A DNA stretch of 64,000 nt, taken from positions 1 to 64,000 of IMG/VR virus record IMGVR_UViG_3300045988_182393; one strand, given 5' to 3'. The translations under genes were made by a program, and so were the position numbers. The notes beneath the pieces are model-generated. The model saw only the letters and a program-made list of their open reading frames with translations, made no database searches and was not told where the DNA came from. Numbering within the stretch: position 1 is the stretch's first letter; each line of letters opens with the position of its first letter. Below, piece after piece: positions 257 to 37,540 of this stretch. This stretch comes from a virus.

Positions 257-1525
257 ATGGCAAGCGAAAGAACCATTCTTCATTGTGATATGAACTGCTT
301 TTACGCCAGCTGCGAGATGGCCTACAATCCAAAGCTGCAGGGAAAATCAATTGCGGTATGTGGTGACCCGGAAAGGCGAAATGGCATCGTGTTGACTGCC
401 TCGTATCCGGCCAAATGGATGGGCGTGAAAACCGGAATGCCTCTATGGGAAGCACAGCAGCATTGCCGAGATATCATCTTTGTCCCGGCACACTATGACC
501 TTTATACCAGATACAGCGACTATACCAGAGAAATCTTCCTGCGCTTCACGGACCAGGTTGAACCGTTTGGCTTGGATGAGGCGTGGCTCGATTGTACCGC
601 AAGCCAGTCACTTTTTGGGACAGGGGAAAAGATAGCCAAGAAAATCTCTGATACCGTGAAGGATGAACTCGGCATTACCTGTTCGGTCGGAGTCAGTTGG
701 AATAAAGTCTTTGCGAAATTGGGGTCCGACTATAAAAAGCCGGATGCCATCACCGTCATATCAAGGTCAAACTGGAAAGATATCGTGTTCCCGCTGCCTG
801 CCACGGACCTTTTGTATGTCGGGTCCAGAACGGGGAAAAAGCTGGCAAACTACTGTGTCCATACAATCGGCGACTTGGCGACTGCCAATCCGAATTTTCT
901 GAAAGAAAAGCTTGGAAAAGTTGGCTCCATGCTATGGGGATTCGCAAATGGCCATGATACGGGAGCGGTAGCGAAATATGAAGGCAGAGAAGCTCAGGCA
1001 CCTATCAAAAGCATTGGCAACAGTTGGACCACACCAAGAGACTTGTTCACGGATGAAGATGTCTGGATAGTTCTCTACCTGCTTTCAGAAAGCGTGGCAG
1101 CAAGGCTCAGAGAGAATCATTTCCGATGTCGAGGGGTAGAAGTGAGCCTCCGAGATTCCAGCCTTTTCAGCTTTGAACGGCAAGTTAAGTTATCTCAGCC
1201 AACGATGCAGGAAAAGGATATTGCGGAGGCAGCATACCAGCTATATAAGAAGAACTACCGATGGAGTGAGCATCTCCGCTCGGTCGGCGTAAGAGCCATC
1301 GACCTTCGGCCAGATACGGAACCAAACCAGATATCATTTGAGTATAGCGCTGAAAAGCAGGAAGAGATAGAGAAGCTCGAATCGGCTATCGACAGCGTTC
1401 GCAATCGATTCGGATACTATTCTGTACAAAGGGCTGTCATGTACAAGGACCGCTTTCTCTCTCATTGTGATGCAAAGGAAGACCATATGATTCACCCACA
1501 TGGGTATTTGCAGGAGAGTATCTAA
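257..1525 (+). CDS. Y-family (UmuC/DinB/ImpB-like) translesion DNA polymerase
   Basis: 422 aa. N-terminal LHCDMNCFYASCE...SIAVCG and FGLDEAWLD...SVGVS are typical IMS/UmuC palm motifs. GGAGG RBS. Confidence 0.9.
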   Translation: MASERTILHCDMNCFYASCEMAYNPKLQGKSIAVCGDPERRNGIVLTASYPAKWMGVKTGMPLWEAQQHCRDIIFVPAHYDLYTRYSDYTREIFLRFTDQVEPFGLDEAWLDCTASQSLFGTGEKIAKKISDTVKDELGITCSVGVSWNKVFAKLGSDYKKPDAITVISRSNWKDIVFPLPATDLLYVGSRTGKKLANYCVHTIGDLATANPNFLKEKLGKVGSMLWGFANGHDTGAVAKYEGREAQAPIKSIGNSWTTPRDLFTDEDVWIVLYLLSESVAARLRENHFRCRGVEVSLRDSSLFSFERQVKLSQPTMQEKDIAEAAYQLYKKNYRWSEHLRSVGVRAIDLRPDTEPNQISFEYSAEKQEEIEKLESAIDSVRNRFGYYSVQRAVMYKDRFLSHCDAKEDHMIHPHGYLQESI

Positions 1526-3344: not shown

Positions 3345-3374
3345 GTGCCGATAAAACAAGCGTTGAGAGAAACG

Positions 3375-3391
3375 GTGCTATATGCTATAAT
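3375..3391 (+). promoter_or_regulatory. Variant of the conserved promoter box (GGTGCTA-N-TATAAT)
   Basis: ggtgcta tatgc tataat. Spacing is 1 nt shorter than the canonical copies. Sits upstream of a hairpin-rich leader (aaagggacgtcccttt palindrome, cttacggag/ctccgtaag) before 3602. Confidence 0.35.
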
Positions 3392-3601
3392 ATTTTCAAG
3401 TTCAAGAACCACAGCCGATACAATCTCAACGAAGAGCTTGATACCTGCTTGAAACTGCACAGCAATAAAAAACAAATATCAAATAACAGAAATGCAGCTT
3501 AAAGAGAAAGGCTGCCATATAAAATAGCAAGAAACGTTTGCAAAAATAGCAATCAGCGCGAAAGGGACGTCCCTTTCCTTACGGAGAAGAACTCCGTAAG
3601 G

Positions 3602-4597
3602 ATGGGTTCTGGCTGCTTCCTGCGCTGCGCGGGGGTGGCACATCTGGGCAAACTGATTGACCTGTATTCTTATCCGGTCAGAACGGCAATGCGGTTTCTG
3701 CTGGAAGATAAGACGACAGGTGAAAATATAATCTGGGCAACAAACACTTATGAACGATATGGCGATGGCTATCGGCAGGATAATCAAATTACGCCGGAGC
3801 TGATTTCCGGGGTATACGCCAATCTTATCCAGCCGCGTATTTTGAAAGCAGAAGAAGAACAGGCGGCAAGAACGAAATCCAAAGCCGAGGTCTTTACGCC
3901 CTCTTGGGTCGTCTGCTATATGAACAATAAATGCGATGACGATTGGTTTGGACGCGAGAACGTATTTAATACACTGAACGGCGAACACTGGGAGCCAACG
4001 AAAGAGCCTGTTTACTTTGAGAAAGAACGGGATTGGCAGCGGTATGTTGATTCTCGGCGGCTGGAAATCACCTGCGGCGAGGCCCCTTATCTGGTGTCCC
4101 GCTATGATGCCGCTACGGGTGAAGGACTGCCGATTGAAAGCAGAATCGGGATTCTGGACAGAAAGCTGCGGGTCGTGAACGAGAACACCGATAACGAGAC
4201 TGACTGGCTGAAATGGACGCGGCGGGCGTTTGAAAGCACCTACGGCTACGAATATCAGGGTGACAACCTGTTGGTTGCGCGTATCAACCTGCTCATGACC
4301 TTTGTGGACTATATGCAGGAGCGATGGCGGCGGGAGCCGACTGCCAAGGAACTGAACCGGATTGCCAATGTAATTTCATGGAACATATGGCAGATGGACG
4401 GCCTGAAAGGGACGATTCCGGGCAAGGAACTGTACATATCAGACGACTACGAGCAGCTATCCCTGTTTGCAAGTGACTTTGAACAGGAAACGCTGTTCGA
4501 TGAGGCGGCTAAGCAGAATAAAAAGTACGAATGTAAAATCCGTGATTGGCGTGCTATGCGGACAATCACTTATAACCAAATGAAGGGAGAGAAATAA
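3602..4597 (+). CDS. N-terminal (motif X / degenerate motif I) half of a split gamma-class N6-adenine DNA methyltransferase
   Basis: KAEVFTPSWVV (motif X, xxFTPxxVV) and LEITCGEAPYLV (degenerate DPxCGSGxFL). Ends 6 nt before the NPPY-containing ORF, which lies in another frame with its own RBS. Confidence 0.55.
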   Translation: MGSGCFLRCAGVAHLGKLIDLYSYPVRTAMRFLLEDKTTGENIIWATNTYERYGDGYRQDNQITPELISGVYANLIQPRILKAEEEQAARTKSKAEVFTPSWVVCYMNNKCDDDWFGRENVFNTLNGEHWEPTKEPVYFEKERDWQRYVDSRRLEITCGEAPYLVSRYDAATGEGLPIESRIGILDRKLRVVNENTDNETDWLKWTRRAFESTYGYEYQGDNLLVARINLLMTFVDYMQERWRREPTAKELNRIANVISWNIWQMDGLKGTIPGKELYISDDYEQLSLFASDFEQETLFDEAAKQNKKYECKIRDWRAMRTITYNQMKGEK

Positions 4598-4602
4598 ACG
4601 AT

Positions 4603-5640
4603 ATGAAGTTCGATTATGCCATTGGTAACCCTCCATATAATGCTGACTTTTCTATTTCTGGTGACAATGGGAAGTTTGCGGCCCCCGTTTATAATCTTTT
4701 TATGGACGCTGCATACGGTATTGCGGATAGAGTTGAATTGATTCATCCGGCACGTTTTTTGTTTAATGCGGGAAGTACGCCGAAGGCATGGAATGAAAAG
4801 ATGCTTAATAATAAGCATTTTAAGGTTTGTTACTATGAGCCTGATTGCAAAAAAGTGTTTTCGAATACAGATATTAAAGGTGGCGTAGCGATAACTTATT
4901 ATGATAGAACTCGTGAATATGCGCCAATTCAAGTTTTCACTCCATACGAAGAACTAAATGGCATTTTGCAAAAGACCAGAAAGTATAGTGAAAAGTCAAA
5001 TGTTGGTGATGTCGGCATTTCTAGTTATGCTTATCATTTCACGCCTATAATGCATAGAGAGCATCCTGAGGTAAAGGCGTTCCAGAGCAAAGGCCATGAG
5101 AATGACTTGAAGTCAAATATTATAGCCAAATTGCCAATGATTTTCTTTAAGGAAAAGCCTGATAATAAGGACTATATTACAATTATGGGACGTTTAGATA
5201 ACGAGAGAGTATCTATGTTTATTCAGCGTTCCTATATCAATGTGGTTAAGAATTTGGATAGCTATAAGATTTTCTTGCCAAAAGCGAGTGGAGTTGGTGA
5301 GTTTGGAGAAGCCCTTGCCCCTGCTATAATTGCAATGCCAGGGGTTGGACACACAGAAACTTTTTTCAGTATAGGCAATTTTTCTACATTGCAAGAGGCG
5401 GAAAATCTACTTAAGTATCTCAAATCAAGATTTGCTCGTGCATTGCTATCAATCTTAAAGAAGACGCAAATGATAACGCCGAGCAATTTTAAATTTATTC
5501 CCCTTCAAGACTTCACTCCCAACTCCGACATTAACTGGTCGGCTTCCATCCGCGACATTGACCAGCAGCTCTACAAGAAGTACGGTCTTTCCCAGCAGGA
5601 AATCGACTTCATCGAATCTCATGTAAAGGAGATGGCATAA
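4603..5640 (+). CDS. Catalytic (NPPY) half of an Eco57I-like N6-adenine DNA methyltransferase
   Basis: MKFDYAIGNPPYNADF (motif IV) then PARFLFNAGSTPKAWNEKMLNN (Eco57I-family P..FL....K.R..LL block). RBS aagggagag. Confidence 0.75.
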   Translation: MKFDYAIGNPPYNADFSISGDNGKFAAPVYNLFMDAAYGIADRVELIHPARFLFNAGSTPKAWNEKMLNNKHFKVCYYEPDCKKVFSNTDIKGGVAITYYDRTREYAPIQVFTPYEELNGILQKTRKYSEKSNVGDVGISSYAYHFTPIMHREHPEVKAFQSKGHENDLKSNIIAKLPMIFFKEKPDNKDYITIMGRLDNERVSMFIQRSYINVVKNLDSYKIFLPKASGVGEFGEALAPAIIAMPGVGHTETFFSIGNFSTLQEAENLLKYLKSRFARALLSILKKTQMITPSNFKFIPLQDFTPNSDINWSASIRDIDQQLYKKYGLSQQEIDFIESHVKEMA

Positions 5641-5641
5641 T

Positions 5642-8600
5642 ATGAGCACCAAAATCGTCATCAAAACAACGGACCGCGTTGTTCCGATGATTTATGCCTA
5701 TACCACTCCTGAGATTGCCCGCCATAACGGTTGGACGAAAATCGGCTACACCGAGCAGGATGTAGACAAGCGATTGAGCCAGCAGACCCATACTGCCGAT
5801 GTGGAATACAAAGAAGAATGGCGCGGCAATGCTACATTCGAGGATGGCTCCGGCGATACATTTACCGATAAAGATTTCCACCGCTATCTGCGCAAGCTGA
5901 ACATTGAGAACGACCCCAAAAACGAATGGTTCCATGTGACGGGACCTGTTTCCCGCAACCACTTCTATGATTTCCGTGCGAATCGCGGTATTTTGCAATC
6001 GCTGACCGCCGCAACTCCGTATAATCTGCGTGAGGAGCAGGAGGATGCGGTAGAAAAAACGCTGGATTACAGCCGCCTGCATACCAAGGGTGAATACCTC
6101 TGGAACGCAAAGCCGCGCTTCGGCAAAACACTTACGGCCTATGAGCTTTGCAAACAGATGGACGCAGACACGGTCCTTATCGTGACGAACCGCCCTGCGA
6201 TTGCAAACTCGTGGTATTCCGACTACGAGAAGTTCCTCGGTCCCGATTCCGGGTATCTGTTTGTGAGCGATACCAGCTCCCTGCAGGGGAAGCCTTTTGT
6301 TGTGAGCCGCAATCAGTATCTGGATATGCTGAACAACGACGACTACAAGTGCATCGAGTTCGTCAGCTTGCAGGACCTCAAAGGCTCCATTTACTTTGGC
6401 GGTGAATTTGAAAAGCTGAAAGAAGTCAATGACATTCATTGGGATGTTCTGATTATTGACGAAGCCCACGAGGGCGTAGATACCTACAAGACGGATGTGG
6501 CGTTCGACCATATTGACCGCAACTTTACGCTGCATCTGTCCGGCACGCCGTTTAAGGCCATTGCCAGCGAAAAATTCAAAGAGGACGCCATCTATAACTG
6601 GACCTATGCCGACGAGCAGAAGAAAAAACGCGATTGGCAGGGTGACCAGAGCGAGCAGAATCCCTACGCGAATTTGCCGCAGCTCAATATGTTCACCTAT
6701 CAGATGTCCGAGGTCGTTCGGGATGAACTGAAACAGGGCATTGAAATCAACGGCGAGACAGAAGAATGGGCGTTTGACCTAAATGAGTTTTTTGCAGTCA
6801 ATCAGGCCGGAAACTTTGTGCATGACAGCGCTGTGGACAAGTTCCTTGATGCGCTGACTACACAGACTAAGTTCCCGTTCTCCACACCGGAATTACGCGA
6901 TGAATTAAAGCATACGCTTTGGCTGCTGAACCGTGTGGACAGCGCCAAGGCTCTAGCCCGCAAGCTGAACAACCATCCTGTTTTCAAGGATTACAAGGTC
7001 GTCGCGGCAGTGGGTGACGGTAGATTGAACGATGATGATTCTGCCAAGAAAGCGTTTGACAGCGTGACCGAGGCTATCGCCCAGAACGACAAGACAATTA
7101 CGCTGTCTGTCGGACAGCTCACCACGGGCGTTACGATTCCAGAATGGACTGCTGTGCTGATGCTGAGCAGCATCAAGAGTGCATCCCTGTATATGCAGGC
7201 GGCGTTCCGTGCGCAGAATCCGTGCTTGTTCCACGACAAAGGCAAGTTCTACCGCAAGGAGAATGCTTATATCTTCGACTTCGACCCTGCGCGAACCCTT
7301 ATGATTTTTGAGGAGTTCGCAAATGACCTGTATGCCAGCACATCCGACGGGCGCGGAGATACCGAAACCCGCAAAAAGCACATCAAGGAACTGCTGAACT
7401 TCTTCCCGGTCATCGGTGAGGATGAAGACAGCGAGATGGTGGAGCTGGATGCCGAAAAGGTGCTTTCTATTCCGCGAAAGATTCGCTCCACAGAAGTTGT
7501 GAATCGCGGATTTATGTCCAACTATCTGTTTCAGAATATTTCCAATATCTTCGGCGCTCCGCAGGAGGTCGTGGACATTATTACAAAGTTCACCCCCGTG
7601 GACGAGCCGAAAAAGCAGGAAGTCAAGAAAGAAGATTTGGACCGCGTCCATGTGGATGAAAACGGCGATGTCAAAGTAGATGAGGGCTATGTTATCGGTT
7701 TGGCTGATGACATTTTTGGCGATAAAATCTATGATACTGTCGGCGAACAGGTCACGCAGGCTATTGATAAAGTCGCCGTTGACAACCAGCCCAAGGATAA
7801 GGCGCTGGAAGCGTTGCAGGAGGCTTTCAAGGCGCAGGCTGTTAAACCCATCGTGGCTGCTGCCACCTCCAATTACGGCACGGAAATCAAGGCTTCGGAT
7901 GCCAAGCGTGTAGAGAAGAAGCTGGGCGAGGATGCGGACCGTTTGGTGGCGCGGACTTACGGCGACTATCGTATCGAAACCAACCAAATCGAAAAAGAAC
8001 GCCATGAGCAGTTGGCTGCTGCTGCGCCCCACGAACAGGCAAAAATCAATCAGGAATTCGACCAGAAAAAGGCAGAGGCTACTGAAAAGCTGAAAACAGC
8101 TTTGAATGATACGGTCAGCAGCTTCGTGGAAGATGCCGCCAAAGAGACTGTCCGCAGCTATGAGACACAAATCGAGGAACGCAAAAAGAACGATGTGGAA
8201 GATACCATCCGCGACCATCTACGCGGTTTTGCCCGCACGATACCGTCATTTCTGATGGCCTATGGCACAGAGGATACCACTCTTGCCAATTTCGACCAAA
8301 TCGTTCCCGATGAAGTTTTCCAAGAAGTCACCAGCATCACGCTGGAGCAGTTCCGTTTCCTGCGCGATGGCGGTGATTACAAGGATACCGCCACAGGCGA
8401 AACGAAGCACTTTGACGGGAAGCTGTTTGATGAAGTCGTGTTTGATGATTCCATCAAAGAGTTCCTGCGGTTAAAGCGTGAACTGGCAAACTATTTTGAC
8501 CCGGCGAACGAAAAGGACATCTTCGACTACATTCCGCCGCAGCGCACGAACCAAATCTTTACCCCGAAAGCAACCGTGGCAAAGATGGTATCGCTTTTGG

Positions 8601-8938
8601 AAGAAGAAAATCCCGGATGCTTTAATGACCCGGACAAGACCTTTATTGACCTGTACATGAAATCGGGCCTGTACATTACCGAAATCGTGAAGCGTCTGTA
8701 CCAGAGCGAAGGCATGAAAGCTGCGTTCCCGAACTCCAAGGAGCGGCTCGAACACATCTTTGAAAAGCAGGTCTACGGTCTGGCTCCGTCCGAAATTATT
8801 TATCGCATTGCAACCAACTATATTCTTGGGTTCTCTGAGGAGCATAACGGAAAGCAGTATAACTTTCGTATGTGCGATGCATTGCCTTATGCAAAGGATG
8901 GGACGTTGAGCGAAAAGCTGGATGAGTTATTTGGATAA
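5642..8938 (+). CDS. T5orf172 (GIY-YIG-like) + SNF2/ResIII-type SF2 helicase with C-terminal coiled-coil and a degenerate methyltransferase motif X/I module
   Basis: N-terminus IYAYT...KIGYT...R...NEWF (GIY-YIG/T5orf172). KPRFGKT (motif I), LIIDEAHEG (DEAH), LHLSGTP (III), TGVTIPEW (V), QAAFRAQN (VI). C-terminus QIFTPKATVAKMV...TFIDLYMKSGLYI resembles methyltransferase motifs X and I. Confidence 0.8.
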   Translation: MSTKIVIKTTDRVVPMIYAYTTPEIARHNGWTKIGYTEQDVDKRLSQQTHTADVEYKEEWRGNATFEDGSGDTFTDKDFHRYLRKLNIENDPKNEWFHVTGPVSRNHFYDFRANRGILQSLTAATPYNLREEQEDAVEKTLDYSRLHTKGEYLWNAKPRFGKTLTAYELCKQMDADTVLIVTNRPAIANSWYSDYEKFLGPDSGYLFVSDTSSLQGKPFVVSRNQYLDMLNNDDYKCIEFVSLQDLKGSIYFGGEFEKLKEVNDIHWDVLIIDEAHEGVDTYKTDVAFDHIDRNFTLHLSGTPFKAIASEKFKEDAIYNWTYADEQKKKRDWQGDQSEQNPYANLPQLNMFTYQMSEVVRDELKQGIEINGETEEWAFDLNEFFAVNQAGNFVHDSAVDKFLDALTTQTKFPFSTPELRDELKHTLWLLNRVDSAKALARKLNNHPVFKDYKVVAAVGDGRLNDDDSAKKAFDSVTEAIAQNDKTITLSVGQLTTGVTIPEWTAVLMLSSIKSASLYMQAAFRAQNPCLFHDKGKFYRKENAYIFDFDPARTLMIFEEFANDLYASTSDGRGDTETRKKHIKELLNFFPVIGEDEDSEMVELDAEKVLSIPRKIRSTEVVNRGFMSNYLFQNISNIFGAPQEVVDIITKFTPVDEPKKQEVKKEDLDRVHVDENGDVKVDEGYVIGLADDIFGDKIYDTVGEQVTQAIDKVAVDNQPKDKALEALQEAFKAQAVKPIVAAATSNYGTEIKASDAKRVEKKLGEDADRLVARTYGDYRIETNQIEKERHEQLAAAAPHEQAKINQEFDQKKAEATEKLKTALNDTVSSFVEDAAKETVRSYETQIEERKKNDVEDTIRDHLRGFARTIPSFLMAYGTEDTTLANFDQIVPDEVFQEVTSITLEQFRFLRDGGDYKDTATGETKHFDGKLFDEVVFDDSIKEFLRLKRELANYFDPANEKDIFDYIPPQRTNQIFTPKATVAKMVSLLEEENPGCFNDPDKTFIDLYMKSGLYITEIVKRLYQSEGMKAAFPNSKERLEHIFEKQVYGLAPSEIIYRIATNYILGFSEEHNGKQYNFRMCDALPYAKDGTLSEKLDELFG

Positions 8939-8958: not shown

Positions 8959-9001
8959 AAGCCGCCAAGCGAGTGAAATCGTTTGGTGGCTTTTCTTTTT
9001 G
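8959..9001 (+). terminator. Rho-independent terminator
   Basis: gccgccaa...ttggtggc stem then a TTTTCTTTTT run. Confidence 0.65.
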
Positions 9002-9095: not shown

Positions 9096-9556
9096 CGAAG
9101 CAAGTTCATTTTTTTGCGCGAAAGAATATCGGATAAGTGACGCTTCCTACTCGTATGACCGAAAGAAAACATGCAAAGACTCTACCATTCTGGTAGGGCT
9201 TTTTTGCTGCCCAAAAAGTTGGAAAAATGTCGCAAGCGAGCCGCTGAAACCTCAGAATTTTGTCGCAGCCTTTCCGAATATGAGATGTATCTCACAAAAG
9301 CGAAATGCGCTGCTTCGTATCTGTGGTGAGACAATCGGAACAGGCGAATAGCAAAATCTCAGCTGCCGCAAATGCTGTCAAGTTCAAATCACAACTCCCA
9401 AAAGTTTCGTTTGGGAAAGCCTGCATTAAAAGTTTCGTTCTGGAAAATGCAGAGGGGAAAGGAAAATGTCGAAGCATATATGCACTGATTTTCTTCTTGC
9501 TATTTGTGCAATCCGCTCAAATTGGCGATAAATATTCCCAAAATAAATAAGTCAAA

Positions 9557-9574
9557 GTGCTTTTGGTGTATAAT
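9557..9574 (+). promoter_or_regulatory. Promoter (GTGC-N8-TATAAT variant) of lipoprotein gene 1
   Basis: gtgc ttttggtg tataat. The whole upstream region is duplicated upstream of the paralog at 10797-10814. Confidence 0.45.
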
Positions 9575-9605
9575 AGCTCTGACAAACAGAAAAAAGGAGA
9601 ACACT

Positions 9606-10700
9606 ATGAAAAAGGTTGTATCATTAGCACTTTCGACTTTGCTCGTCCTCTCGTTGGCTGCCTGTGGCAAGGCAGACAGTTCTGCTGCAGCCTCAAGTGA
9701 ATCCAAGTCAAGTGCTTCGTCGTCAAGTGCTTCGTCAAATAGCACTTCCAATAGCACGCAAGATTACAGCCCTGACGGGATTAAAGTAGGAGAGACATAT
9801 ACTACAGAAGACGGCAAAACATATGAAAGGGTGTGGAACGGCACAGGCAGCGATTTACCTACGCCGTCCCCCGAACCCAAAATTACATACGATAATGATT
9901 TCCAGGCACAAACACTTGTTGATAATGAAGAATGCACCATTATCTTGCAGAGCGTAGGCTACGATGATGATTACGGCTATTATTGGAAGCTTTACTTCAA
10001 GAATAAGACATCAGATAAAAAACTCGGTTACTCGTTTGGCGACTGCACATTGAATGGCGTGGGTGCGAGCCTTTGGCTTACGAGTGTTGAACCTGGTCAA
10101 GAGGAAACGGAGATTCATCATTGGGAAAGTTCCGGGCTTAAAATTTATAACATCAATCCGCAGGATATCAATACGGTAAGTTTTTATCTCGATGTCTATA
10201 ACGAATTAGATTATGATGTTATCCCACGGCATGACTTTGTTGATGACGATTTCGTGGTTTATCCAAAAGGGGAAGAAAACGCAACCGAGCCAAAGCATGA
10301 AACCCAACCCACAGACCTCGTACTGGCCGACAATGACGCTTGCACTCTGATGATTTGTGGATTTGACCCCGATGGCCTGGACGGTTACACGGCTAAAGCT
10401 TACATCGAAAACAAAACAGATAAAGAAATCATGCTTGCCTTTAGAAGTGGAGGTTCCATAAATGGCTTTGAGTGCTTCCCTGAAACAGATACAATGGGAA
10501 TTGATGCGCACACTAATGCCTATGTAGACATCTACTATCGCGATTATTTGGATACTTATGAGGCCAACGGTAAAGACCCCACCTCTATCACCGAAATGGT
10601 GATGCCAATCGTTATAAACAATTTCAATACTCGGGACATCTATGTAGATGAGACTTTCACTATTAACCCTCAGACAAATTCCGTGACAACATCGAAATAA
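9606..10700 (+). CDS. Secreted lipoprotein (paralog 1), Ser-rich linker + repeated beta-rich domains
   Basis: MKKVVSLALSTLLVLSLAAC lipobox. Shares blocks TIILQSVGYDDDYGYYWK, DDDFVVYPKGEE and DPTSITE-VMP with 10845-11867. Confidence 0.75.
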   Translation: MKKVVSLALSTLLVLSLAACGKADSSAAASSESKSSASSSSASSNSTSNSTQDYSPDGIKVGETYTTEDGKTYERVWNGTGSDLPTPSPEPKITYDNDFQAQTLVDNEECTIILQSVGYDDDYGYYWKLYFKNKTSDKKLGYSFGDCTLNGVGASLWLTSVEPGQEETEIHHWESSGLKIYNINPQDINTVSFYLDVYNELDYDVIPRHDFVDDDFVVYPKGEENATEPKHETQPTDLVLADNDACTLMICGFDPDGLDGYTAKAYIENKTDKEIMLAFRSGGSINGFECFPETDTMGIDAHTNAYVDIYYRDYLDTYEANGKDPTSITEMVMPIVINNFNTRDIYVDETFTINPQTNSVTTSK

Positions 10701-10796: not shown

Positions 10797-10814
10797 GCGC
10801 TTTTGATGTATAAT
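10797..10814 (+). promoter_or_regulatory. Promoter of lipoprotein gene 2 (duplicated copy)
   Basis: gcgc ttttgatg tataat. Flanks are about 85% identical to 9530-9640. Confidence 0.4.
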
Positions 10815-10844
10815 AGCCTTATACAAAGAAAAAAGGAGAAAATC

Positions 10845-11867
10845 ATGAAAAAGGTTGTATCATTAGCACTTTCGGCTTTGCTTGTACTTTCCCTGGCCGC
10901 CTGTAGCAGCTCTAACACTACCAGTACTGCTGCCAGCAGTGCAGCTACATCTGATGCTGCATCCTCCGAGGAAAGCACCAGCGACTCTTCAACGAGTACT
11001 GCAAGTAGTGCTGCCGATAGTACAACGGCTGAACCTGACATCCAGTTCGATGAGAGTTTCCAGCCACAGACGATTGCCGACAACGATACCTGTACCATCA
11101 TCTTGCAGAGCGTTGGCTATGATGATGACTACGGATACTACTGGAAGATTAACTTCCAGAACAAAACGGACGACAAGACTCTATGCGCTATCACAAGCAG
11201 TTCATCGCTGAACGGAATCCCAGCCGATACCAGCTGGTTCCCGGAAATCGGACCCGGAGAAGAGGTTACTGAAGTCGTTTCGTGGGACAGCGAAGGACTG
11301 GAAATCTATGGAGTGAAACCGCAAGACATCGATACCGTCAAACTTCACATCGATGTCTATGATGAAGCAGAATGGGATGTGTCGAATCGTGATGACCCTA
11401 TCGATGATGACTTTGTGATTTATCCGAAAGGTGAAGAGAAAGCGACAAAACCAAAACACGAGATTCAGCCCACGGATATTGTGCTGTTCGACAATAATGC
11501 CTGCAGCATGGTCGTTTGCGGATTTTATTCTGATAGTTTCATGGGCTATACGGCGAAAGCCTACTGTCAGAACAAGACGGATGACCGTATCGATATCATT
11601 TTGGACAAAGGCTCTATCAACGGCTTTGAATGTACCCCAGAAGGAGCGGCACTACTGGAACCACATTCTAATGCCTACGTGGATATCCGTTGGCAGGAAT
11701 ATGCCGGAACCTACGCAGAAAATGGCAATGACCCAACATCCATCACAGAAATTGTAATGCCAGTTTTTGTGAGAAAAGACACAGGGAGCAATACGGTATA
11801 CATTGACGCCACTTATTCTATTGACCCGCAGGCAAGAACAGCAACGCCGATAGTGAATCCCCAATGA
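10845..11867 (+). CDS. Secreted lipoprotein (paralog 2)
   Basis: MKKVVSLALSALLVLSLAAC lipobox. Tandem duplicate of 9606-10700 including the 5'UTR. Confidence 0.75.
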   Translation: MKKVVSLALSALLVLSLAACSSSNTTSTAASSAATSDAASSEESTSDSSTSTASSAADSTTAEPDIQFDESFQPQTIADNDTCTIILQSVGYDDDYGYYWKINFQNKTDDKTLCAITSSSSLNGIPADTSWFPEIGPGEEVTEVVSWDSEGLEIYGVKPQDIDTVKLHIDVYDEAEWDVSNRDDPIDDDFVIYPKGEEKATKPKHEIQPTDIVLFDNNACSMVVCGFYSDSFMGYTAKAYCQNKTDDRIDIILDKGSINGFECTPEGAALLEPHSNAYVDIRWQEYAGTYAENGNDPTSITEIVMPVFVRKDTGSNTVYIDATYSIDPQARTATPIVNPQ

Positions 11868-15598: not shown

Positions 15599-17242
15599 AT
15601 GGTATACGTGATTGGAATTGTAGCAGCCCTGATTATTCTCTTTGGATTTCTCTGCTACAAGAAAGCTCCGCCCACGGAGGCTATCGTTGTAACTGGCTTT
15701 GGCCTGTCTAAGCCTAAAGTGGTTTGCGGAAAGGGTACATTTGTTCTGCCCGTTCTCCAACGGGCTGACCGACTGAATATGCGCCTTTTGAAAATCGATG
15801 TCAAGACTCCTGAAACAGGTGTTAAGACGAAGAACGGCGTAAGTCTCTGGATTGACTCTGTTGTCACGATTCAAGTCTACAGCGAAAACTCTACCGTTCT
15901 GGATGAAGAAGTGAAGGCATCCGGTCTGAAAGACGCCAAGGCGTACATCATGTCCCGACAACAGGCAGCCATCTCGAACTTTCTGGGCATGAACGAGCAG
16001 GGCATCAATGAGAAAGTTAATGACGTTCTGCAGGGCAATTTGCGTGAGATTGTCTCTGACATGACCGTTGACCAAATTCTGACGAACCGCAAGCAGATGG
16101 CTGTGAGCGTTATCGAGAATGCTCGCCCCGACCTTGCTAAGATGGGACTTGAGGTCGTGACTTTTAACGTCCAGGATATCAGGGATGCGGTGGATGTTCA
16201 GGGCCACAACCACGGCGTCATCGAGGCTATCGGCATTGAACAGGAAGAGCTTGTGAAAAAACAGGCTGAAATTGCCCGTGCTCAGGCTGCCCGTGATGTA
16301 GCCTGCGCGAAGGCCGATGCTGAGATGGCTGCAAATGCCAAGGAAGTTGAAGCGCAGACTGTGATTGCAAAACGCAACAATGAATTGCAGCTCGCCAAGG
16401 CAAAGCTGAAAGCTGAAGCTGATAAAGCTGCGGCTGACGCAGATGCTGCCGGTCAGATTCAGATGAATCTCCGCGCCAAAGAAATCAAAGAAGCGGAAGC
16501 GGATGCTGAAATCGCCAAGCAGAAGAAAATGGTAGACCTTGCCGCACAGGAAGCCGAGGTCCAGCAACGCAAACTGGATGCGGAAGTCCGCAAACAGGCA
16601 GATGCTGACCTGTACCGCCGCCAGAAAGAGGCAGAAGCCAAGAAATATGAGGCGGAACGTGCAGCTGAGGCACAGAAGTTCTCCAAGCAGCAGGAAGCAG
16701 AAGGCATTGAACTTGTCGGTAAGGCAGAAGCTGAAGCGATTCGTCAGAAAGGCTTGGCTGAAGCGGAAGCCATGAAACAGAAAGCAGAGGCATATAAGCA
16801 GTATAACGATGCGGCTGTGGCTGAAATGCTCATCAAGGTTCTTCCTGACATTGCCAAGAGCGTGGCTCAGCCTTTGTCCAGCATTGATAAGGTTTCTATC
16901 ATTGGCGGTGACGCCTCCGGCGTATCCGGCGTTTCCGGGAACGTTCCTATCCTGATGGCTCAAACCATGCAGACGGTGAAAGAAGCGACCGGCATTGACA
17001 TGGGCGAAATTGTCCGTGCCAACAGCATCCAGGCAAAGACCGACCGCAACATCAACATTATGACTCAATGTGAACAGCCTGAGAATAACAAAGAGAAAGG
17101 AGGTGCCAAGGCAATGGAACGCGTAGAAGGCGGCTATCTGATTCATGAGAAGAGTCTCAACGGTGAGAAAGTCACTCATTTTCGACCGGATGTGACCGAA
17201 GAAGAGAAGGCTATCATGAAAGACAAAAAGGCCAAAGATTAA
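15599..17242 (+). CDS. Flotillin / SPFH (band-7) family membrane protein
   Basis: N-terminal TM, SPFH-like core, then a long E/A/K-rich coiled coil (AEAEA repeats) typical of FloT/YuaG. Confidence 0.85.
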   Translation: MVYVIGIVAALIILFGFLCYKKAPPTEAIVVTGFGLSKPKVVCGKGTFVLPVLQRADRLNMRLLKIDVKTPETGVKTKNGVSLWIDSVVTIQVYSENSTVLDEEVKASGLKDAKAYIMSRQQAAISNFLGMNEQGINEKVNDVLQGNLREIVSDMTVDQILTNRKQMAVSVIENARPDLAKMGLEVVTFNVQDIRDAVDVQGHNHGVIEAIGIEQEELVKKQAEIARAQAARDVACAKADAEMAANAKEVEAQTVIAKRNNELQLAKAKLKAEADKAAADADAAGQIQMNLRAKEIKEAEADAEIAKQKKMVDLAAQEAEVQQRKLDAEVRKQADADLYRRQKEAEAKKYEAERAAEAQKFSKQQEAEGIELVGKAEAEAIRQKGLAEAEAMKQKAEAYKQYNDAAVAEMLIKVLPDIAKSVAQPLSSIDKVSIIGGDASGVSGVSGNVPILMAQTMQTVKEATGIDMGEIVRANSIQAKTDRNINIMTQCEQPENNKEKGGAKAMERVEGGYLIHEKSLNGEKVTHFRPDVTEEEKAIMKDKKAKD

Positions 17243-17260
17243 AGACAACGAATAAAAAGA

Positions 17261-17291
17261 GGGTGACTCGAAAGAGCCATCCTTTTTTCTG
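17261..17291 (+). terminator. Rho-independent terminator (GAAA-loop hairpin + U6)
   Basis: gggtgactc-gaaa-gagccatcc tttttt. Confidence 0.5.
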
Positions 17292-17374
17292 TTGTGACGC
17301 AAACGAAAAGTTCATGGTAGCCATCCAATTAGGGTGACTGTCTTTTTTGCATGTTAAGGCTTTGTTGCTGAATC

Positions 17375-17392
17375 GTGCGAATCGAAGATAAT
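17375..17392 (+). promoter_or_regulatory. Conserved promoter box GTGCGAA-N5-GATAAT
   Basis: gtgcgaa tcgaa gataat upstream of 17463. Confidence 0.5.
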
Positions 17393-17462
17393 TAGAAGCA
17401 AAAGATACTTCGTATCAAGCCCTCTTGATAGCAAATAGAGTAAAACCGGAGAGGTGAAGTTA

Positions 17463-18266
17463 ATGCTCGGCGTGAGTTTGATTATCATAGCAGCGGCTAT
17501 AGTCTACATGGTCGAAACCTATATCAGCACCTATTACACTATCGAATACATGCACGGAACATCGCTGTTCATTATCCTCCTTGCGAAATATGGCACGCCA
17601 GTCCTGTTCCTGCTGCTCTGCGCCTACATTGCATATCGCAATTTTCTCAAAAAGCAGAAAGCTGCGGCTTCTGCTGCATCTGAACGGCCTACAAGCAAAG
17701 AAGAGCTGTATACCAACAAAATTCAAACGGCAGTAAAGACAAAAAGCGTCTTCTCAGAGCAGGCTGACCAAATGCTGTATCAGGTACGGCGCTTCGGGCA
17801 AAAAATGGCCGTTGCCTACAGCATGACCCAGGATAGCAAGACATCCGGGGAACAAGTCAAGTGCCTAACGTTATTGGAATCCGCAGAACGTATCTTCTAT
17901 GACCGACTGGATGACGCGATTCGCTCGGCTTCAATGTTTGATGAAACGGAATACAAGGCTTTCTGTCAAGGCTCTATCTCGTTTGGAAACAAAGAAGAAG
18001 TGCAGAAAAAGAAAGAAATCTACAATGGTATCGTAAGTACCGTGGATAAGGTAGTTCATGACAATGAGCGCTTAATCCTCCGATTGGATTCTTTAGCATA
18101 CGCTCTGAACCAACGTTCTGCCCAGAATCCGTGGGATACAGAGGTTGTGCTCGCAATGTCAAAGCTCGATGCTGTCATTAACAAGACGACGCAGGATATT
18201 GAACAGGATGAAGATATCAGTCGTGAGGCTATGAAACGATATAACAACTTGAAAGGAGAAATTTAA
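17463..18266 (+). CDS. Membrane protein of the flotillin operon (2 TM + cytoplasmic coiled-coil domain)
   Basis: RBS ggagagg. TM helices LGVSLIIIAAAIVY and LFIILLAKYGTPVLFLLLCAYIAY. Confidence 0.6.
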   Translation: MLGVSLIIIAAAIVYMVETYISTYYTIEYMHGTSLFIILLAKYGTPVLFLLLCAYIAYRNFLKKQKAAASAASERPTSKEELYTNKIQTAVKTKSVFSEQADQMLYQVRRFGQKMAVAYSMTQDSKTSGEQVKCLTLLESAERIFYDRLDDAIRSASMFDETEYKAFCQGSISFGNKEEVQKKKEIYNGIVSTVDKVVHDNERLILRLDSLAYALNQRSAQNPWDTEVVLAMSKLDAVINKTTQDIEQDEDISREAMKRYNNLKGEI

Positions 18267-18267
18267 C

Positions 18268-19962
18268 GTGACAAAAAAGAACATTTTCCCTGTAGTTGCA
18301 ACCATTGCTGTGGTAGGCGTTGTTCTCGGAGTATTTTCGATGACGGTGATGAGGGACTCAAACGTCAGCATTAGTACAATGACGTCCGAGCAGGCATATG
18401 CCAACTTGAGCAGCAAGATGAAGCGCATCGGCGTGCAGGAGGTCAAGGTCAATCCTCAGCAGCTAGATGTTTCTGAATTCCTTGATGCAAAGGATGAACT
18501 GCCCGACATTGAATCCTCCTACCCATTCGTGGTCGTAGGAAACGGAGATGTGAACATCGAAATCTTTTCCTCTGGCGAGAAAGCAGCAGAGTCCGGCTCA
18601 GATTCTTTCCTGACCGAAATGGCAAAGAAGTTCAACGCCCAGCACAACAAGACTTCCGGAGACAAGACTATGAGTGTCTCCCTGCGCTCCATTCCGTCCG
18701 GTACGGCGGCTGAGTACATCTCGACGGGAAAGTATCAGCCCGAGTGCTATACCCCCTCAAATACACTCTTTGGCGAGCTGGTGAAGAACGAGGGCGTAGA
18801 ATTGACCGTTGAGGCTGACCGTCTGGTCGGCAATGTGGCGGGTATTCTCGTATCAAAGAAGACAGGGGATATGCTTCGCTCTGAATACGGTGAAGCATCT
18901 GTTTCTTCCGTTCTGAACGCAACCATCGATGGCAAACTCATGATGGGATACTCGAACCCCTACACAAGTGCTACGGGTCTTAATTTTCTGCTTGAGGCTC
19001 TTGCGAGCAGCGGCAGCGATACGATTGTCGATACGGCTGCTGTTGAGAATTTCCAGAAATTTCAAGCGAACGTCCCTCTCGTATCCTTCACGACCCAGCA
19101 GATGGTCCAGTCGGCTGACAAGGGTATCGTGGACGGTGTCGTGATGGAGTACCAGTCTTATCAGAATGACCCGACCTTGCAGCGCAACTACGAATTCATC
19201 CCGTTCGGTGTACGGCACGATAATCCTCTGTATTCCATCGGGAATGTCTCTGCTGAGAAAAAGGAAGTTATTACTGCCTTCGTTTCCTTCTGCGCTCAGA
19301 ACCAGGCGGAGGCGACCAAGGACGGGTTCAATGGTCTTGACGACTATGCTTATACAGGCAAGGCATACGATGGCAACACCATCGCACAGGCTCAGAGTGT
19401 CTGGAAAGAAGAGAAGGACTCAGGCATTCCTATTGTGGCAGAGTTCGTTGTCGATACTTCCGGCTCGATGCGCGGCGAACCCCTGAATGCCCTGAAAACC
19501 GCGATGATAAACACCATCCAGTATATCAATGACGACAACTATATCGGCATCATTGGCTTTGATTCAGATGTCAGGGAATACCTGCCCATTGACCAGTTCT
19601 CTCTGACCCAGAAAACTCTGTATAAGGGTGCCGTGAACTCCCTCGATGCGAACGGCAGCACCGCAATGTACAACGGTCTTTGCGTTGCTATGGACCGCAT
19701 CTACCAGAAATCTCAGGAACTGGGTGGGAATTGCACGCCCATCATCTTTGTGCTCACGGATGGTGACAACAATACCGGATATGGCTTCTCCGATACGAAA
19801 AACATCATTGCCGGTATGGATATCCCCATTTACACCATCAGCTACAACTACGCAGCGGATAGTCTTTCGGAGCTCGCTTCCATCAACGAAGCGGCAGCTA
19901 TCGTCGGCAACAGCGAGGATATCACCTACAAGCTCCGCAACCTGTTCAACGCAGAGATGTAA
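18268..19962 (+). CDS. Membrane-anchored von Willebrand factor A (vWA) domain protein
   Basis: N-terminal TM. C-terminal FVVDTSGSMRGEPL (DxSGS MIDAS)...GSTAMYNGL...IIFVLTDGDNN. Confidence 0.8.
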   Translation: MTKKNIFPVVATIAVVGVVLGVFSMTVMRDSNVSISTMTSEQAYANLSSKMKRIGVQEVKVNPQQLDVSEFLDAKDELPDIESSYPFVVVGNGDVNIEIFSSGEKAAESGSDSFLTEMAKKFNAQHNKTSGDKTMSVSLRSIPSGTAAEYISTGKYQPECYTPSNTLFGELVKNEGVELTVEADRLVGNVAGILVSKKTGDMLRSEYGEASVSSVLNATIDGKLMMGYSNPYTSATGLNFLLEALASSGSDTIVDTAAVENFQKFQANVPLVSFTTQQMVQSADKGIVDGVVMEYQSYQNDPTLQRNYEFIPFGVRHDNPLYSIGNVSAEKKEVITAFVSFCAQNQAEATKDGFNGLDDYAYTGKAYDGNTIAQAQSVWKEEKDSGIPIVAEFVVDTSGSMRGEPLNALKTAMINTIQYINDDNYIGIIGFDSDVREYLPIDQFSLTQKTLYKGAVNSLDANGSTAMYNGLCVAMDRIYQKSQELGGNCTPIIFVLTDGDNNTGYGFSDTKNIIAGMDIPIYTISYNYAADSLSELASINEAAAIVGNSEDITYKLRNLFNAEM

Positions 19963-34137: not shown

Positions 34138-34255
34138 GGGAAATATAAAATAAATAAGTGTAAGCCGCAGAGATTATGTTTCTGCGGCTCTTTCTTTTGT
34201 GGTCCCCATGCGGATGAAAATGTCTGCGTGGGGATTATTTATTGGGAGATATAAC

Positions 34256-35515
<1,260 letters not shown>

Positions 35516-36403: not shown

Positions 36404-37540
36404 ATGAAAATCACCGAAACTAAAATCAAGGTATCTGACCTTGTCGAGAACTACAAGGATAATGGCGATGGCGGTGTCTTTGGCTACAATGACCGTCTTA
36501 CGATTCGCCCGTCCTTCCAGCGTGAGTTTATTTACGGGGAGAAGCAGCGTGCAGCCGTCATCGATTCCGTAATGAACGGATTTCCGCTGAACGTCATGTA
36601 CTGGTCTAAGACCGGGGCTGACACATACGAGGTTCTTGATGGGCAGCAGCGTACCGTCTCTATTGCCCAGTACATCAACAAGGATTTCCCTGTCACGGTC
36701 AACGGCAATGATAAGTTCTTCCAGAACCTGACCAACGAAGAAAAGCAGGCAATTCTGGACTACGAGCTGACGGTCTATGTCTGTGAAGGCACGGAAGCCG
36801 AGAAGCTGGAATGGTTTAAGCGTATCAACATCGCTGGAGAAGTTCTGACTCCGCAAGAGCTGCTGAACGCTACCTATACAGGTCCGTGGCTGGCTGATGC
36901 AAAGAACTACTTCTCAAAGCGCAACTGTGTGGCCGCGAAGATGGCTGATGGTTACTTGAAAGGGAACCCTATTCGGCAGGAACTGCTGGAAAAGGCTCTG
37001 ACTTGGATTGCGGACCGGGATGGTCTGGAATCCGGGCAGATGTACATGGCTATCCACCAGCATGACGAGGATGCCAATGACCTCTGGCTTTACTTCCAGT
37101 CAGTTATCAACTGGGCAAAAATGCTGTTCCCGACTAAGCGGAAGGGGATTACTGATGCACAGGCGTGGGGACTGCTCTACAACAAGTACCATGCCATGCA
37201 GTACAACAGCAACGCTCTGGAAGCAGACATCAAGCAGCTCGTGATGGACGATGATGTGACGAAAAAGGCAGGCATCGTTCCGTACATCCTGTCTGACCGT
37301 ACATGGCGTGACGAGAAGCACCTGTCTCTGCGTGCGTTTACTGAATCCCAGAAACTCCGTGCCTACGAGCGGCAGGGTCACAAATGTCCCTTGTGCGTTG
37401 CAAATGGCATCAACACCGAGTATGCCTTTGAGGATATGGAAGGTGACCACATCATTCCTTGGAGCAAGGGCGGGCATACTACGGATGACAACCTGCAGAT
37501 GTTGTGCAAGAAGTGCAATGCGGCGAAGTCGGATATGTAA
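36404..37540 (+). CDS. GmrSD-like Type IV restriction enzyme (N-terminal DUF262/ParB-like + C-terminal HNH)
   Basis: VLDGQQRTVSI (DGQQR). C-terminus CPLC...GDHIIPWSKGGHTTDDNLQMLCKKCNAAK (HNH). Confidence 0.8.
   Translation: MKITETKIKVSDLVENYKDNGDGGVFGYNDRLTIRPSFQREFIYGEKQRAAVIDSVMNGFPLNVMYWSKTGADTYEVLDGQQRTVSIAQYINKDFPVTVNGNDKFFQNLTNEEKQAILDYELTVYVCEGTEAEKLEWFKRINIAGEVLTPQELLNATYTGPWLADAKNYFSKRNCVAAKMADGYLKGNPIRQELLEKALTWIADRDGLESGQMYMAIHQHDEDANDLWLYFQSVINWAKMLFPTKRKGITDAQAWGLLYNKYHAMQYNSNALEADIKQLVMDDDVTKKAGIVPYILSDRTWRDEKHLSLRAFTESQKLRAYERQGHKCPLCVANGINTEYAFEDMEGDHIIPWSKGGHTTDDNLQMLCKKCNAAKSDM

Follow-up and report, generated by a model that had tools for sequence, protein, structure and literature searches.

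A Putative Type ISP-like Restriction-Modification Operon with a Split Methyltransferase and Two SAM-Binding Halves

The stretch analyzed here, 64,000 nucleotides of the IMG/VR virus record IMGVR_UViG_3300045988_182393 (the window), carries three co-directional open reading frames (ORFs) on the + strand at positions 3602-8938. ORF1 and ORF3 each contain a predicted S-adenosylmethionine (SAM)-binding half of a gamma-class N6-adenine DNA methyltransferase, denoted N2 and N1, respectively. ORF2 contains the catalytic half, denoted C, together with the target-recognition region, and ORF3 also contains a nuclease-like domain and a superfamily 2 (SF2) ATPase. We give an even chance to the proposal that the three genes constitute a Type ISP-like, ATP-dependent restriction-modification (R-M) system in which ORF2 is shared between ORF1 and ORF3.

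The Type ISP enzymes LlaGI and LlaBIII (PDB 5ffj, 4xqk) carry a nuclease, an SF2 ATPase, a coupler, a gamma-class methyltransferase and a target-recognition domain (TRD) in that order, and the same order is found across the three proteins of the window. The Type ISP structures are the best matches for ORF3 and are among the best for a joined N1-C module, and the Type ISP genes are plasmid-borne in lactic acid bacteria, like members of the ORF3 family. An earlier sequence-only reading of the window had likened the locus to Type I/III/ISP logic, and both the domain order and the best PDB matches agree with Type ISP. In contrast to the single polypeptide of the Type ISP enzymes, the window has three genes, and the single-chain relatives (P0318) carry an extra N-half. 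The Type ISP nuclease is of the Mrr/PD-(D/E)xK kind, whereas the N-terminus of ORF3 is T5orf172/GIY-YIG-like. One intact methyltransferase domain serves both methylation and restriction targeting in Type ISP, whereas here the fold is split, with a divergent SAM-binding half attached to the motor and another, presumably canonical one always present as ORF1. Similarity to Type ISP at the level of sequence was undetectable in PDB sequence and profile searches.

The DnmA(YeeA)-YeeB-YeeC cluster also combines an MmeI-like gamma-class N6-adenine methyltransferase that bears a TRD, an SF2 helicase and a T5orf172/GIY-YIG domain, and was predicted to be an R-M-like defence system (PMC2731913). Its methyltransferase is an intact protein of ~880 aa that lacks a nuclease, and its helicase and T5orf172 domain are separate, the latter at the C-terminus of YeeC. 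In the window, the helicase protein carries the T5orf172 domain N-terminally and bears an extra N-half, and the methyltransferase is split. The trio thus resembles DnmA-YeeB-YeeC in its presumed working and falls outside that group, from which it is set apart by architecture alone. Relatives of MmeI and the Type ISP enzymes with helicase subunits and GIY-YIG nucleases were anticipated previously and termed uncharacterised (PMC2731913; PMC3553950).

The Type IIL/IIG enzymes (MmeI, DrdV, and the Eco57I family) and the orphan methylase CamA share with the trio the Eco57I Pfam domain and an NPPY core followed by a C-terminal TRD. CamA, DrdV and MmeI are recovered as fold matches, and PADLOC files the fused relatives as "REase_MTase_IIG". 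These enzymes differ in being single chains without an ATPase motor and in having a PD-ExK nuclease (none in CamA). The Type I systems (HsdR/HsdM/HsdS) likewise share one swappable specificity subunit between the modification and motor-nuclease assemblies, with a specificity gene that diversifies rapidly beside conserved partners. HsdS, however, is a TRD-only protein with two TRDs that binds complete HsdM domains, and the HsdR nuclease is of the PD-ExK kind, whereas the shared unit here would be half of a catalytic Rossmann fold acting by fold complementation. No match to an HsdS, HsdM, or HsdR family was found in Pfam, NCBIfam, or PADLOC, and the likeness to HsdM is at the fold level only. 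Type III systems proper consist of a beta-class Mod methyltransferase and Res, an SF2 ATPase with a C-terminal PD-ExK nuclease. The trio differs from these in its gamma-class motif order (X, I ... IV) and its N-terminal T5orf172-type nuclease, and the generic ResIII ATPase is the only match. DNA methyltransferases that work as two separately encoded polypeptides are represented by M.AquI and M.EcoHK31I (PMC3404938). In contrast to the window proteins, these C5-cytosine enzymes are divided near motifs VIII-X or at motif IX and have one partner each and no motor-nuclease bearing an alternative half.

No description of the trio, of a methyltransferase split between beta-3 and beta-4, or of an arrangement with two N-halves and one C-half, and no experiment on any family member, was found in a literature search that was not exhaustive and did not cover REBASE. 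The kind of system is known, since the REBASE-derived PADLOC profiles already list the genes as putative R-M components; the architecture and the coupling mechanism that it implies are new.

Domain Content of the Three Proteins

The sequence-only reading had described three ORFs, the first two making up a split methyltransferase and the third joining a GIY-YIG (T5orf172)-type domain and a ResIII/SNF2 helicase to a long coiled coil and a second methyltransferase motif X/I module. The three ORFs and all of the quoted motifs were recovered by the ORF listing and a motif search. Chance would not produce these features, given the invariance of the putative catalytic and motif residues in 53 homologues and the profile match of the ORF3 tail to SAM-binding halves. 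The gaps between the ORFs are 5 nt (ORF1-ORF2) and 1 nt (ORF2-ORF3), and the three genes make up one operon flanked by a promoter-like site and a terminator.

ORF1 (3602..4597, + strand, 331 aa) is the free SAM-binding half, N2, with motifs X, I, II and III of a gamma-class N6-adenine DNA methyltransferase. Motif X (AEVFTPSWVV) is found at 3884-3913 (aa 95-104) and the degenerate motif I, which has the variant form LEITCGEAPYL, at 4061-4093 (aa 154-164); both had been read correctly from the letters. The motif search further located motif II/III (YGYEYQGDN...) at 4241-4294 and motif III (NIWQMDGL) at 4382-4405. ORF1 has no Pfam match and matches the PADLOC MTase_II profile PDLC03390 (327 positions) over its full length (4e-111). 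More than 8000 homologues are present in the databases, nearly all of 305-320 aa, and those with names are called "restriction endonuclease subunit M". The SAM-binding residues read CGEAPY in ORF1 and AGEGAF in a short N2 type, and YGYE is retained; SAM binding itself is a prediction.

ORF2 (4603..5640, + strand) is the C-half, which would supply beta-4 to beta-7, the target-recognition region and a conserved C-terminal segment. The gene lies in a frame different from that of ORF1 and, as had been claimed, has its own strong ribosome-binding site, the Shine-Dalgarno (SD) sequence AAGGGAGAG with a duplex dG of -6.9. The N-terminus of the protein reads MKFDYAIGNPPY. The earlier statement that the protein starts directly with NPPY was right about the Eco57I-family block and wrong about the literal start. 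NPPY occupies residues 9-12 with the beta-4 strand ahead of it; beta-4 and motif IV (KFDYAIGNPPY) span 4606-4638 and are followed by beta-5 to beta-7. The full length of ORF2 matches the PADLOC MTase_II profile PDLC03375 (348 positions). Its C-terminus matches the end of the PADLOC REase_MTase_IIG profile PDLC03626 (1359 positions), and parts of ORF3 match the same profile.

ORF2 alone matches only positions 73-171 of the Pfam Eco57I profile, the second half of the model (51.2 bits). When ORF1 and ORF2 were joined in silico, the match grew to positions 4-171 (60.8 bits), in agreement with the proposed split into two polypeptides. When the ORF3 tail was joined to ORF2, the match covered positions 1-171 (58.7 bits). 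The gamma-class order of motifs X, I, II, III, IV (NPPY), V-VIII and TRD is completed only by ORF1 and ORF2 jointly or by the ORF3 tail and ORF2 jointly. NCBIfam has no family for ORF1, ORF2, or ORF3, and PDB sequence searches with the three proteins returned nothing relevant. PDB profile searches with the N2-C and N1-C alignments found no methyltransferase; fold comparison alone was informative.

The C-terminus of ORF3 carries the motifs QIFTPKATVAKMV, FIDLYMKSGLYITEI, VYGLAPSEIIYRIATNYILGF and NFRMCDALPY and is among the best-conserved parts of the protein (53-118 homologues). The motif X residues Q971, I972, T974 and P975 are invariant, as are F1001, D1003, Y1005, K1007, S1008, G1009, Y1011 and E1014 of a variant motif I, and G1046, A1048, P1049 and D1079. 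In the AlphaFold2 (AF2) model, the fold consists of the motif-X helix, beta1, a helix, beta2, a helix and beta3, after which the chain ends. The ORF3 tail and ORF1 gave no significant match in a pairwise BLASTP comparison (E 0.55), and an initial hhalign comparison of N1 with N2 from shallow alignments was marginal (probability 58%); deeper alignments were required. With diverse alignments, N1 was matched to the ORF1-type N2 with a probability of 86% (E 5e-6) and to the short canonical N2 subtype, motif by motif, with a probability of 94% (E 1e-7). The second motif X/I module claimed earlier is thus a complete, divergent SAM-binding half, by these profile comparisons a paralogue of N2, and its end coincides exactly with the point in the fold at which ORF2 starts. 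N1 has Lys in place of the first Gly of the G-loop (MKSGLY) and Ala in place of the motif II acidic residue, Glu (YGLAP). Both substitutions are invariant in split and fused loci alike and may reflect a loss of SAM binding by N1.

ORF3 (5642..8938, + strand, 1098 aa) was delineated from Pfam matches, invariant residues and the AF2 model (mean pLDDT 74.7; tail 85-90). A T5orf172/GIY-YIG-like domain is found at 5684-5980, where Pfam T5orf172 matches aa 17-100 with 25.1 bits (cutoff 20). The residues Y18, Y20, Y36, R44, H80 and E95 of the GIY-YIG type, within the segments IYAY, KIGYT and NEW, are invariant in 53 homologues. The modelled topology (E16-21, E32-37, H41-50, E57-63, H76-85) gives a beta-beta-alpha-beta-alpha core, and a Pfam MUG113 match is found at the N-terminus in ORF3 homologues. 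The domain is assigned on this evidence to the T5orf172 branch within the superfamily of GIY-YIG nucleases, with catalysis as a prediction.

The SF2 (ResIII-type) ATPase follows at 6014-7516 (Pfam ResIII, aa 127-304), and its Walker A (GKT), DEAH, SGTP and motif VI-like residues are invariant among the homologues. The SNF2 label given earlier alongside GIY-YIG and ResIII is weak, as SNF2-rel_dom scored 14.7 bits against a cutoff of 24.9 and a ResIII-type SF2 ATPase is the best description; the T5orf172 and ResIII assignments stood. The long coiled coil that had been noted corresponds to a coupler at 7682-8233, modelled as long helices (aa 681-864). A helical linker at 8234-8518 leads to N1 at 8519-8935, which was delimited with hhalign and the AF2 model. 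In a Foldseek search with the whole ORF3 model, the best PDB match was the Type ISP enzyme LlaBIII (4xqk), with an E of 1.3e-10 and ~1100 co-linear columns. LlaGI was also listed, above most SNF2/ISWI/Chd1 motors, SauUSI, XPB and RadD.

Several candidate signals accompany the genes. A promoter-like site (TTGAGA-17 nt-TATAAT with a TG extension, 11/12 matches) lies 5' of ORF1 at 3363..3391 on the + strand and is predicted from its match to the consensus only. The leader at 3560..3601 (+ strand) contains two perfect palindromes, GAAAGGGAC/GTCCCTTTC at 3560-3577 and CCTTACGGAG-aagaa-CTCCGTAAGG at 3577-3601. The second has a 10-bp stem and a 5-nt loop and ends right at the ATG of ORF1. The pair may be an operator or, possibly, a translational hairpin controlling the N2 half. 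No good SD sequence was found for ORF1 at 3602. This position is nevertheless a likelier start than Met30, because homologues conserve an "LI.....PV" segment upstream of Met30. ORF3 is preceded by the SD sequence AAGGAG. An intrinsic terminator-like hairpin at 8959..8992 (+ strand), with a 14-bp stem followed by a T run, begins 21 nt past the ORF3 stop.

Gene Arrangements among the Relatives

In a scan of one genome per species, relatives of ORF3 turned up in at least 577 genomes belonging to many phyla. Identity is 58-67% for the best 80, which span Clostridia, Treponema, Collinsella, Bifidobacterium, Adlercreutzia, Parabacteroides, Alistipes and Alphaproteobacteria, and also Akkermansia, Kiritimatiellae, Melainabacteria, Riflebacteria and one metagenome-assembled genome (MAG) of Methanocorpusculum. 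The gene order of the window recurs in Fibrobacter (308/348/1119 aa), in Bacteroides fragilis, where an MNT/HEPN pair lies between the methyltransferase genes, and in Lachnospiraceae.

The loci with enough sequence upstream of ORF3 to be informative number 67, and homologues of ORF1 and ORF2 lie 5' of ORF3 in 66 of them. The methyltransferase is split at the exact M-K-F-D...NPPY boundary in 34/67 loci, with the two genes adjacent in various frames in 25 and separated by 0.2-1.9 kb in 9. The inserts between the halves include MNT/HEPN pairs, small toxin-antitoxin-like pairs, divergent XRE-type regulators and, on a B. longum plasmid, IS256; unrelated genes also separate the halves in L003 and L010. 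A single uninterrupted N2-C frame is present in 22/67 loci, and P0110 is an in-frame fusion of this kind, as is the gene in F. prausnitzii ATCC 27768. A further 11 loci are irregular or shortened, and in one the genes are in an odd order. Among the 56 tips of a neighbour-joining tree built from ORF3, the split or fused state changed at least 9 times (shuffles gave a mean of 17 and a minimum of 11). The split, as judged from these comparisons, is a stable and recurrent state at one boundary between beta-3 and beta-4 and not a lesion.

Both N-halves are found joined to the C-half. The ORF3 tail, used as the query of an exhaustive search, returned 853 representatives. Among the best 150 of these, ~80 stop right after N1 as in the window, and ~29 run within a few residues into an ORF2 homologue starting KFDVIIGNPPYQ (for example P0309, 1447 aa). 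Four more, P0318 among them, have N1, an N2 with canonical motif I (LEPTAGKGAFL), and the C-half in one chain. Single chains of the ORF3-N2-C type are P0318 (1492 aa), P0355 and P0362. With a slash between separate genes and a hyphen for fusion, five architectures share the one boundary: N2/C/ORF3 (34/67), N2-C/ORF3 (22/67), N2/ORF3/C, N2/ORF3-C and ORF3-N2-C. The N2/ORF3/C form is found in L092, on an L. plantarum plasmid, where the C-half gene overlaps the ORF3 stop. The N2/ORF3-C form is found in L006, L008, L009, L091 and L093. Fusions of N1 to C dominate on the plasmids of Enterococcus, Pediococcus, Bacillus and Paenisporosarcina, an E. durans plasmid and Pediococcus pRS5 among them, and every N1-C fusion locus examined has a separate small N2 gene immediately upstream.

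Both covalent pairings, N2-C and N1-C, exist in nature, and the Pfam Eco57I model aligns unbroken across the natural junctions of both. The model of P0307, a natural N1-C fragment, has a pLDDT of 85, with a core above 90, and shows beta1-3 and beta4-7 as one continuous domain. With an N1-C model as the Foldseek query, CamA was the first match (E 1e-12), followed by BrxX/PglX, LlaBIII/LlaGI, DrdV and MmeI, with alignment over whole methyltransferase-TRD modules. The N1-C pairing is predicted from these models to form a canonical methyltransferase fold.

The three genes have diverged to different extents, with mean pairwise identities across the loci of 0.61 for ORF3, 0.49 for ORF1 and 0.40 for ORF2. 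In the pairs L033/L056, L043/L045 and L023/L025, the ORF3 proteins are 97-98% and the ORF1 proteins 93-96% identical, yet the ORF2 proteins are only 19-26% identical. A hypervariable target-recognition region (~aa 100-240 of ORF2, 4900-5322, + strand) was delimited from the variability across loci. Since ORF2 carries both the NPPY catalytic loop and the target-recognition region, it is taken from these alignments to be a swappable specificity module, whose recognition domain is exchanged by recombination as expected in R-M.

Some individual relatives depart from these patterns. In L042, L047, L048 and L066, the gap between the ORF1 and ORF2 homologues contains a conserved XRE-type helix-turn-helix gene of ~80 aa, encoded on the opposite strand, which may be a C-protein-like controller of the ORF2-ORF3 unit. 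The Collinsella loci L069-L072 and L075 share an overlapping frameshift just past NPPY, off the usual boundary, which is either an inherited pseudogene or a programmed frameshift; the copy in Collinsella aerofaciens ATCC 25986 is frameshifted. On an 86-kb contig of the Methanocorpusculum sp. MAG (L079), assigned to an archaeal methanogen, the split cassette is complete and ~60% identical to its bacterial counterparts; it was either transferred between domains in the gut or binned in error. In a Riflebacteria MAG (L078), the homologues are in the order ORF3, ORF2, ORF1 on the same strand, and the ORF3 frame starts at the position of residue 155. In P0256 (1381 aa), N1 is followed by an unrelated extension of ~280 aa in place of the NPPY half, in which D...DFKVSK resembles a PD-(D/E)xK motif. 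Two metagenome proteins are deletion chimeras of the window's own locus: in P0014, the upstream metallophosphatase runs into the middle of ORF1, and in P0017, ~235 aa from the start of ORF1 are followed directly by the final ~270 aa of ORF3. In some populations the locus is evidently undergoing erosion, to judge by these chimeric sequences.

Proposed Mechanism and Competing Explanations

The domain plan of nuclease, SF2 motor, coupler, gamma-class methyltransferase and TRD would be that of the Type ISP enzymes, with ORF2 completing the Rossmann fold with either of the two paralogous SAM-binding halves. Paired with ORF1, whose N2 half has presumably canonical SAM-binding residues, ORF2 would form the protective N6-adenine methyltransferase. 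Paired with N1 of ORF3, it would bring the motor-nuclease to copies of that site that lack the modification. By analogy with the Type ISP enzymes, which methylate one strand and cleave when translocation leads to collision between head-to-head sites, the motor would then move along the DNA at the expense of ATP and the GIY-YIG-type domain would nick it. We infer from the architectures that ORF2 pairs with both partners and which pairing methylates; the nuclease activity, the cleavage mechanism and an anti-phage function are likewise attributed to the system by reasoning from its parts. More tentatively, ORF2 may alternate between N2 and the SAM-impaired N1 by fold complementation, and competition of these two for the C-half of the Rossmann fold could set the decision to modify or to cut.

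Several observations weigh against this proposal. Every architecture has two N-halves and one C-half, and one N-half is left without an obvious partner in the N2-C, N1-C and N1-N2-C forms. A free C-half produced by internal initiation within the fused genes would resolve the stoichiometry, and the junction sequences are suggestive of this. A start codon is always present at the fusion junction (ATG in 21/21 N2-C fusions; ATG, TTG or GTG in N1-C fusions), and the SD-like pairing there averages -7.0 kcal/mol, compared with -1.7 kcal/mol at other internal ATGs (p 4e-12). Resampling with synonymous codons, however, attributes most of this signal to a Lys/Gly/Glu-rich linker peptide. The remaining excess over the resampled sequences is 1.1 kcal/mol (Wilcoxon p 5e-4, Fisher p 0.12; the loci are non-independent), and the single-chain N1-N2-C form has no SD-like site at the junction. 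The confidence of AF2 in the N1-C fold may stem in part from a generic Rossmann-fold prior. The T5orf172 match is modest (E 2.6e-5), and nuclease activity of that domain family is itself a prediction. The DnmA-YeeB-YeeC system was inactive against phage in B. subtilis, giving neither phage protection nor a transformation barrier (PMC9973331).

The chief rival keeps the R-M system and lets ORF2 pair only with ORF1. N1 would then be a degenerate docking or coupler pseudo-half that binds the ORF1-ORF2 enzyme in the manner of HsdR on M2S. We consider this possible and less probable than the proposal that ORF2 is shared by ORF1 and ORF3; it keeps that standing because of the stoichiometry problem and the weak evidence for internal initiation. 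It would explain why N1 lacks two key SAM-binding residues through invariant substitutions, and why N1 is conserved equally where N2 and C are covalently fused. In the single chain N1-N2-C, moreover, N2 stands beside C, and N1 is partnerless in cis with no internal start signal. A docking role does not sit easily with the plasmid clade of Lactobacillales and Bacillales, in which N1 is covalently contiguous with C and N2 is a separate small gene. Nor does it fit readily with the high-confidence prediction of the N1-C fusion as a complete canonical methyltransferase domain, or with the finding that N1 ends at the same fold boundary as N2 in all forms. The main alternative to defence, which we think unlikely, is a methyltransferase with an epigenetic or orphan role beside a helicase-nuclease that is a relic or has been repurposed, as was proposed for DnmA-YeeB-YeeC of B. 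subtilis, or a maintenance or repair module of a mobile element. The B. subtilis result would suit such a role, and both the window copy and an Enterococcus plasmid copy adjoin a Y-family polymerase. Invariance of every nuclease and ATPase motif across phyla speaks against it, as does the horizontal movement of the cassette as a unit into defence islands and plasmids. The rapid turnover of the ORF2 recognition region between near-identical systems is, in addition, an arms-race signature, and homologues of DnmA/YeeB are reported, as cited in PMC9973331, to be active and protective in Vibrio crassostreae.

An anti-restriction module had been raised as an alternative in the sequence-only reading. 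Its methyltransferase would pre-protect the incoming DNA of a plasmid or an integrative and conjugative element during establishment, and its helicase-nuclease would act on host systems. The family is often plasmid-borne, with 85 plasmids (23 conjugative, 22 mobilizable), whereas many copies are chromosomal amid housekeeping genes. A lone gamma-class enzyme of narrow specificity, whose TRD is hypervariable, is unlike the broad anti-restriction methylases, and the nuclease-motor partner would be left without a role. The idea found no support, and we hold it to be improbable; the hypervariability of the specificity region and the settings of the family, in defence islands and on plasmids, favour R-M. 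The least credible reading is that ORF1 and ORF2 are a frameshifted pseudogene of a single-chain methyltransferase, the outcome that the sequence-only reading had named as its refutation. Fused orthologues do exist, as the uninterrupted N2-C frame in 22/67 loci and the P0110 fusion show, whereas the pseudogene part is contradicted by the same split boundary in 34/67 loci, in varied frames and spacings, each with its own start codon and SD sequence. The split was gained or reverted at least 9 times and is interleaved with the fused state on the ORF3 tree, and whole genes (MNT/HEPN, XRE regulators, IS256) lie between the halves. More than 8000 ORF1-like proteins have a length of ~310 aa, and each half has a separate PADLOC/REBASE-derived profile. 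True irregular frameshifts, such as those of the Collinsella loci, look otherwise. The pseudogene was rejected on the recurrence of the boundary, the starts and SD sequences, the interleaving on the tree and the intervening genes.

Surrounding Genes and Biological Meaning

The window is an accessory, defence-rich region. Genes for a Y-family polymerase, a SLOG protein and a metallophosphatase lie upstream of the trio, and the window also encodes a PLD nuclease, a ResIII/DEAD helicase, an EcoRI-like methylase, GmrSD-HNH, DUF4238, RlaP and UvrD-like proteins. The loci of relatives are defence-rich or plasmid-borne, and McrBC, TIR, FRG and toxin-antitoxin genes are found near the window or relative loci. 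No tRNA genes were found in the window, megablast of positions 1-24000 against plasmids gave no match, and phage records gave just 5 weak or metagenomic matches. Metagenome sequences that contain identical or near-identical copies of ORF1 and ORF3 number in the hundreds to thousands.

A Y-family DNA polymerase gene adjoins the system both in the window (257-1525) and on an Enterococcus durans conjugative plasmid (L009, 10025-11350), which suggests a shared mobile-element backbone or a recurrent association. A PLD-family nuclease at 20665-22830, with an NgoFVII N-terminal PLD match, and a 731-aa ResIII/DEAD/SWI2-SNF2 helicase at 28208-30403 are encoded within a few kb of each other; the pair recalls the ATP-dependent restriction enzymes of the CglI/NgoAVII type, an analogy of content. 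An EcoRI-like adenine methyltransferase at 34199-35515 (Pfam 2.7e-103) is followed closely by a GmrSD_N and HNH protein at 36404-37540, which by its domains is a putative Type IV-like modification-dependent nuclease and further defence cargo. Two tandem paralogues at 9504-10700 and 10803-11867 have signal-peptide/lipobox-like N-termini (…LSLAAC…) and Ser/Thr-rich linkers and match no Pfam family. An SPFH/flotillin protein, an unannotated ORF of 270 aa and a von Willebrand factor A protein are encoded in succession at 15599-19962.

With more than 8000 database matches each for ORF1 and ORF3, this is a very common family. Its hosts include Faecalibacterium, Collinsella, Bifidobacterium, Bacteroidota, Treponema and Akkermansia, and it is found on plasmids of Enterococcus, Lactococcus and Lactobacillaceae. 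The present annotation is limited to "restriction endonuclease subunit M", "Eco57I domain protein", and "DEAD/DEAH helicase". A naturally split methyltransferase whose halves can be exchanged, and whose specificity is set by one compact, swappable gene, would be a good basis on which to build programmable or split-enzyme tools for methylation. The separation of the parts by evolution offers a natural test of how recognition, methylation and translocation are coupled in Type ISP-like enzymes. If ORF2 does alternate between its two partners, one small gene change would reprogramme modification and restriction together, and the half-domain shared naturally by two enzymes would represent an undescribed coupling of modification to restriction. 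If the trio does function in R-M, phage infection and gene transfer in gut and dairy bacteria are probably hindered by it to a large extent. It would then also be a source of unexplained N6-methyladenine (m6A) motifs in methylomes and would bear on the engineering of gut commensals that are hard to transform.

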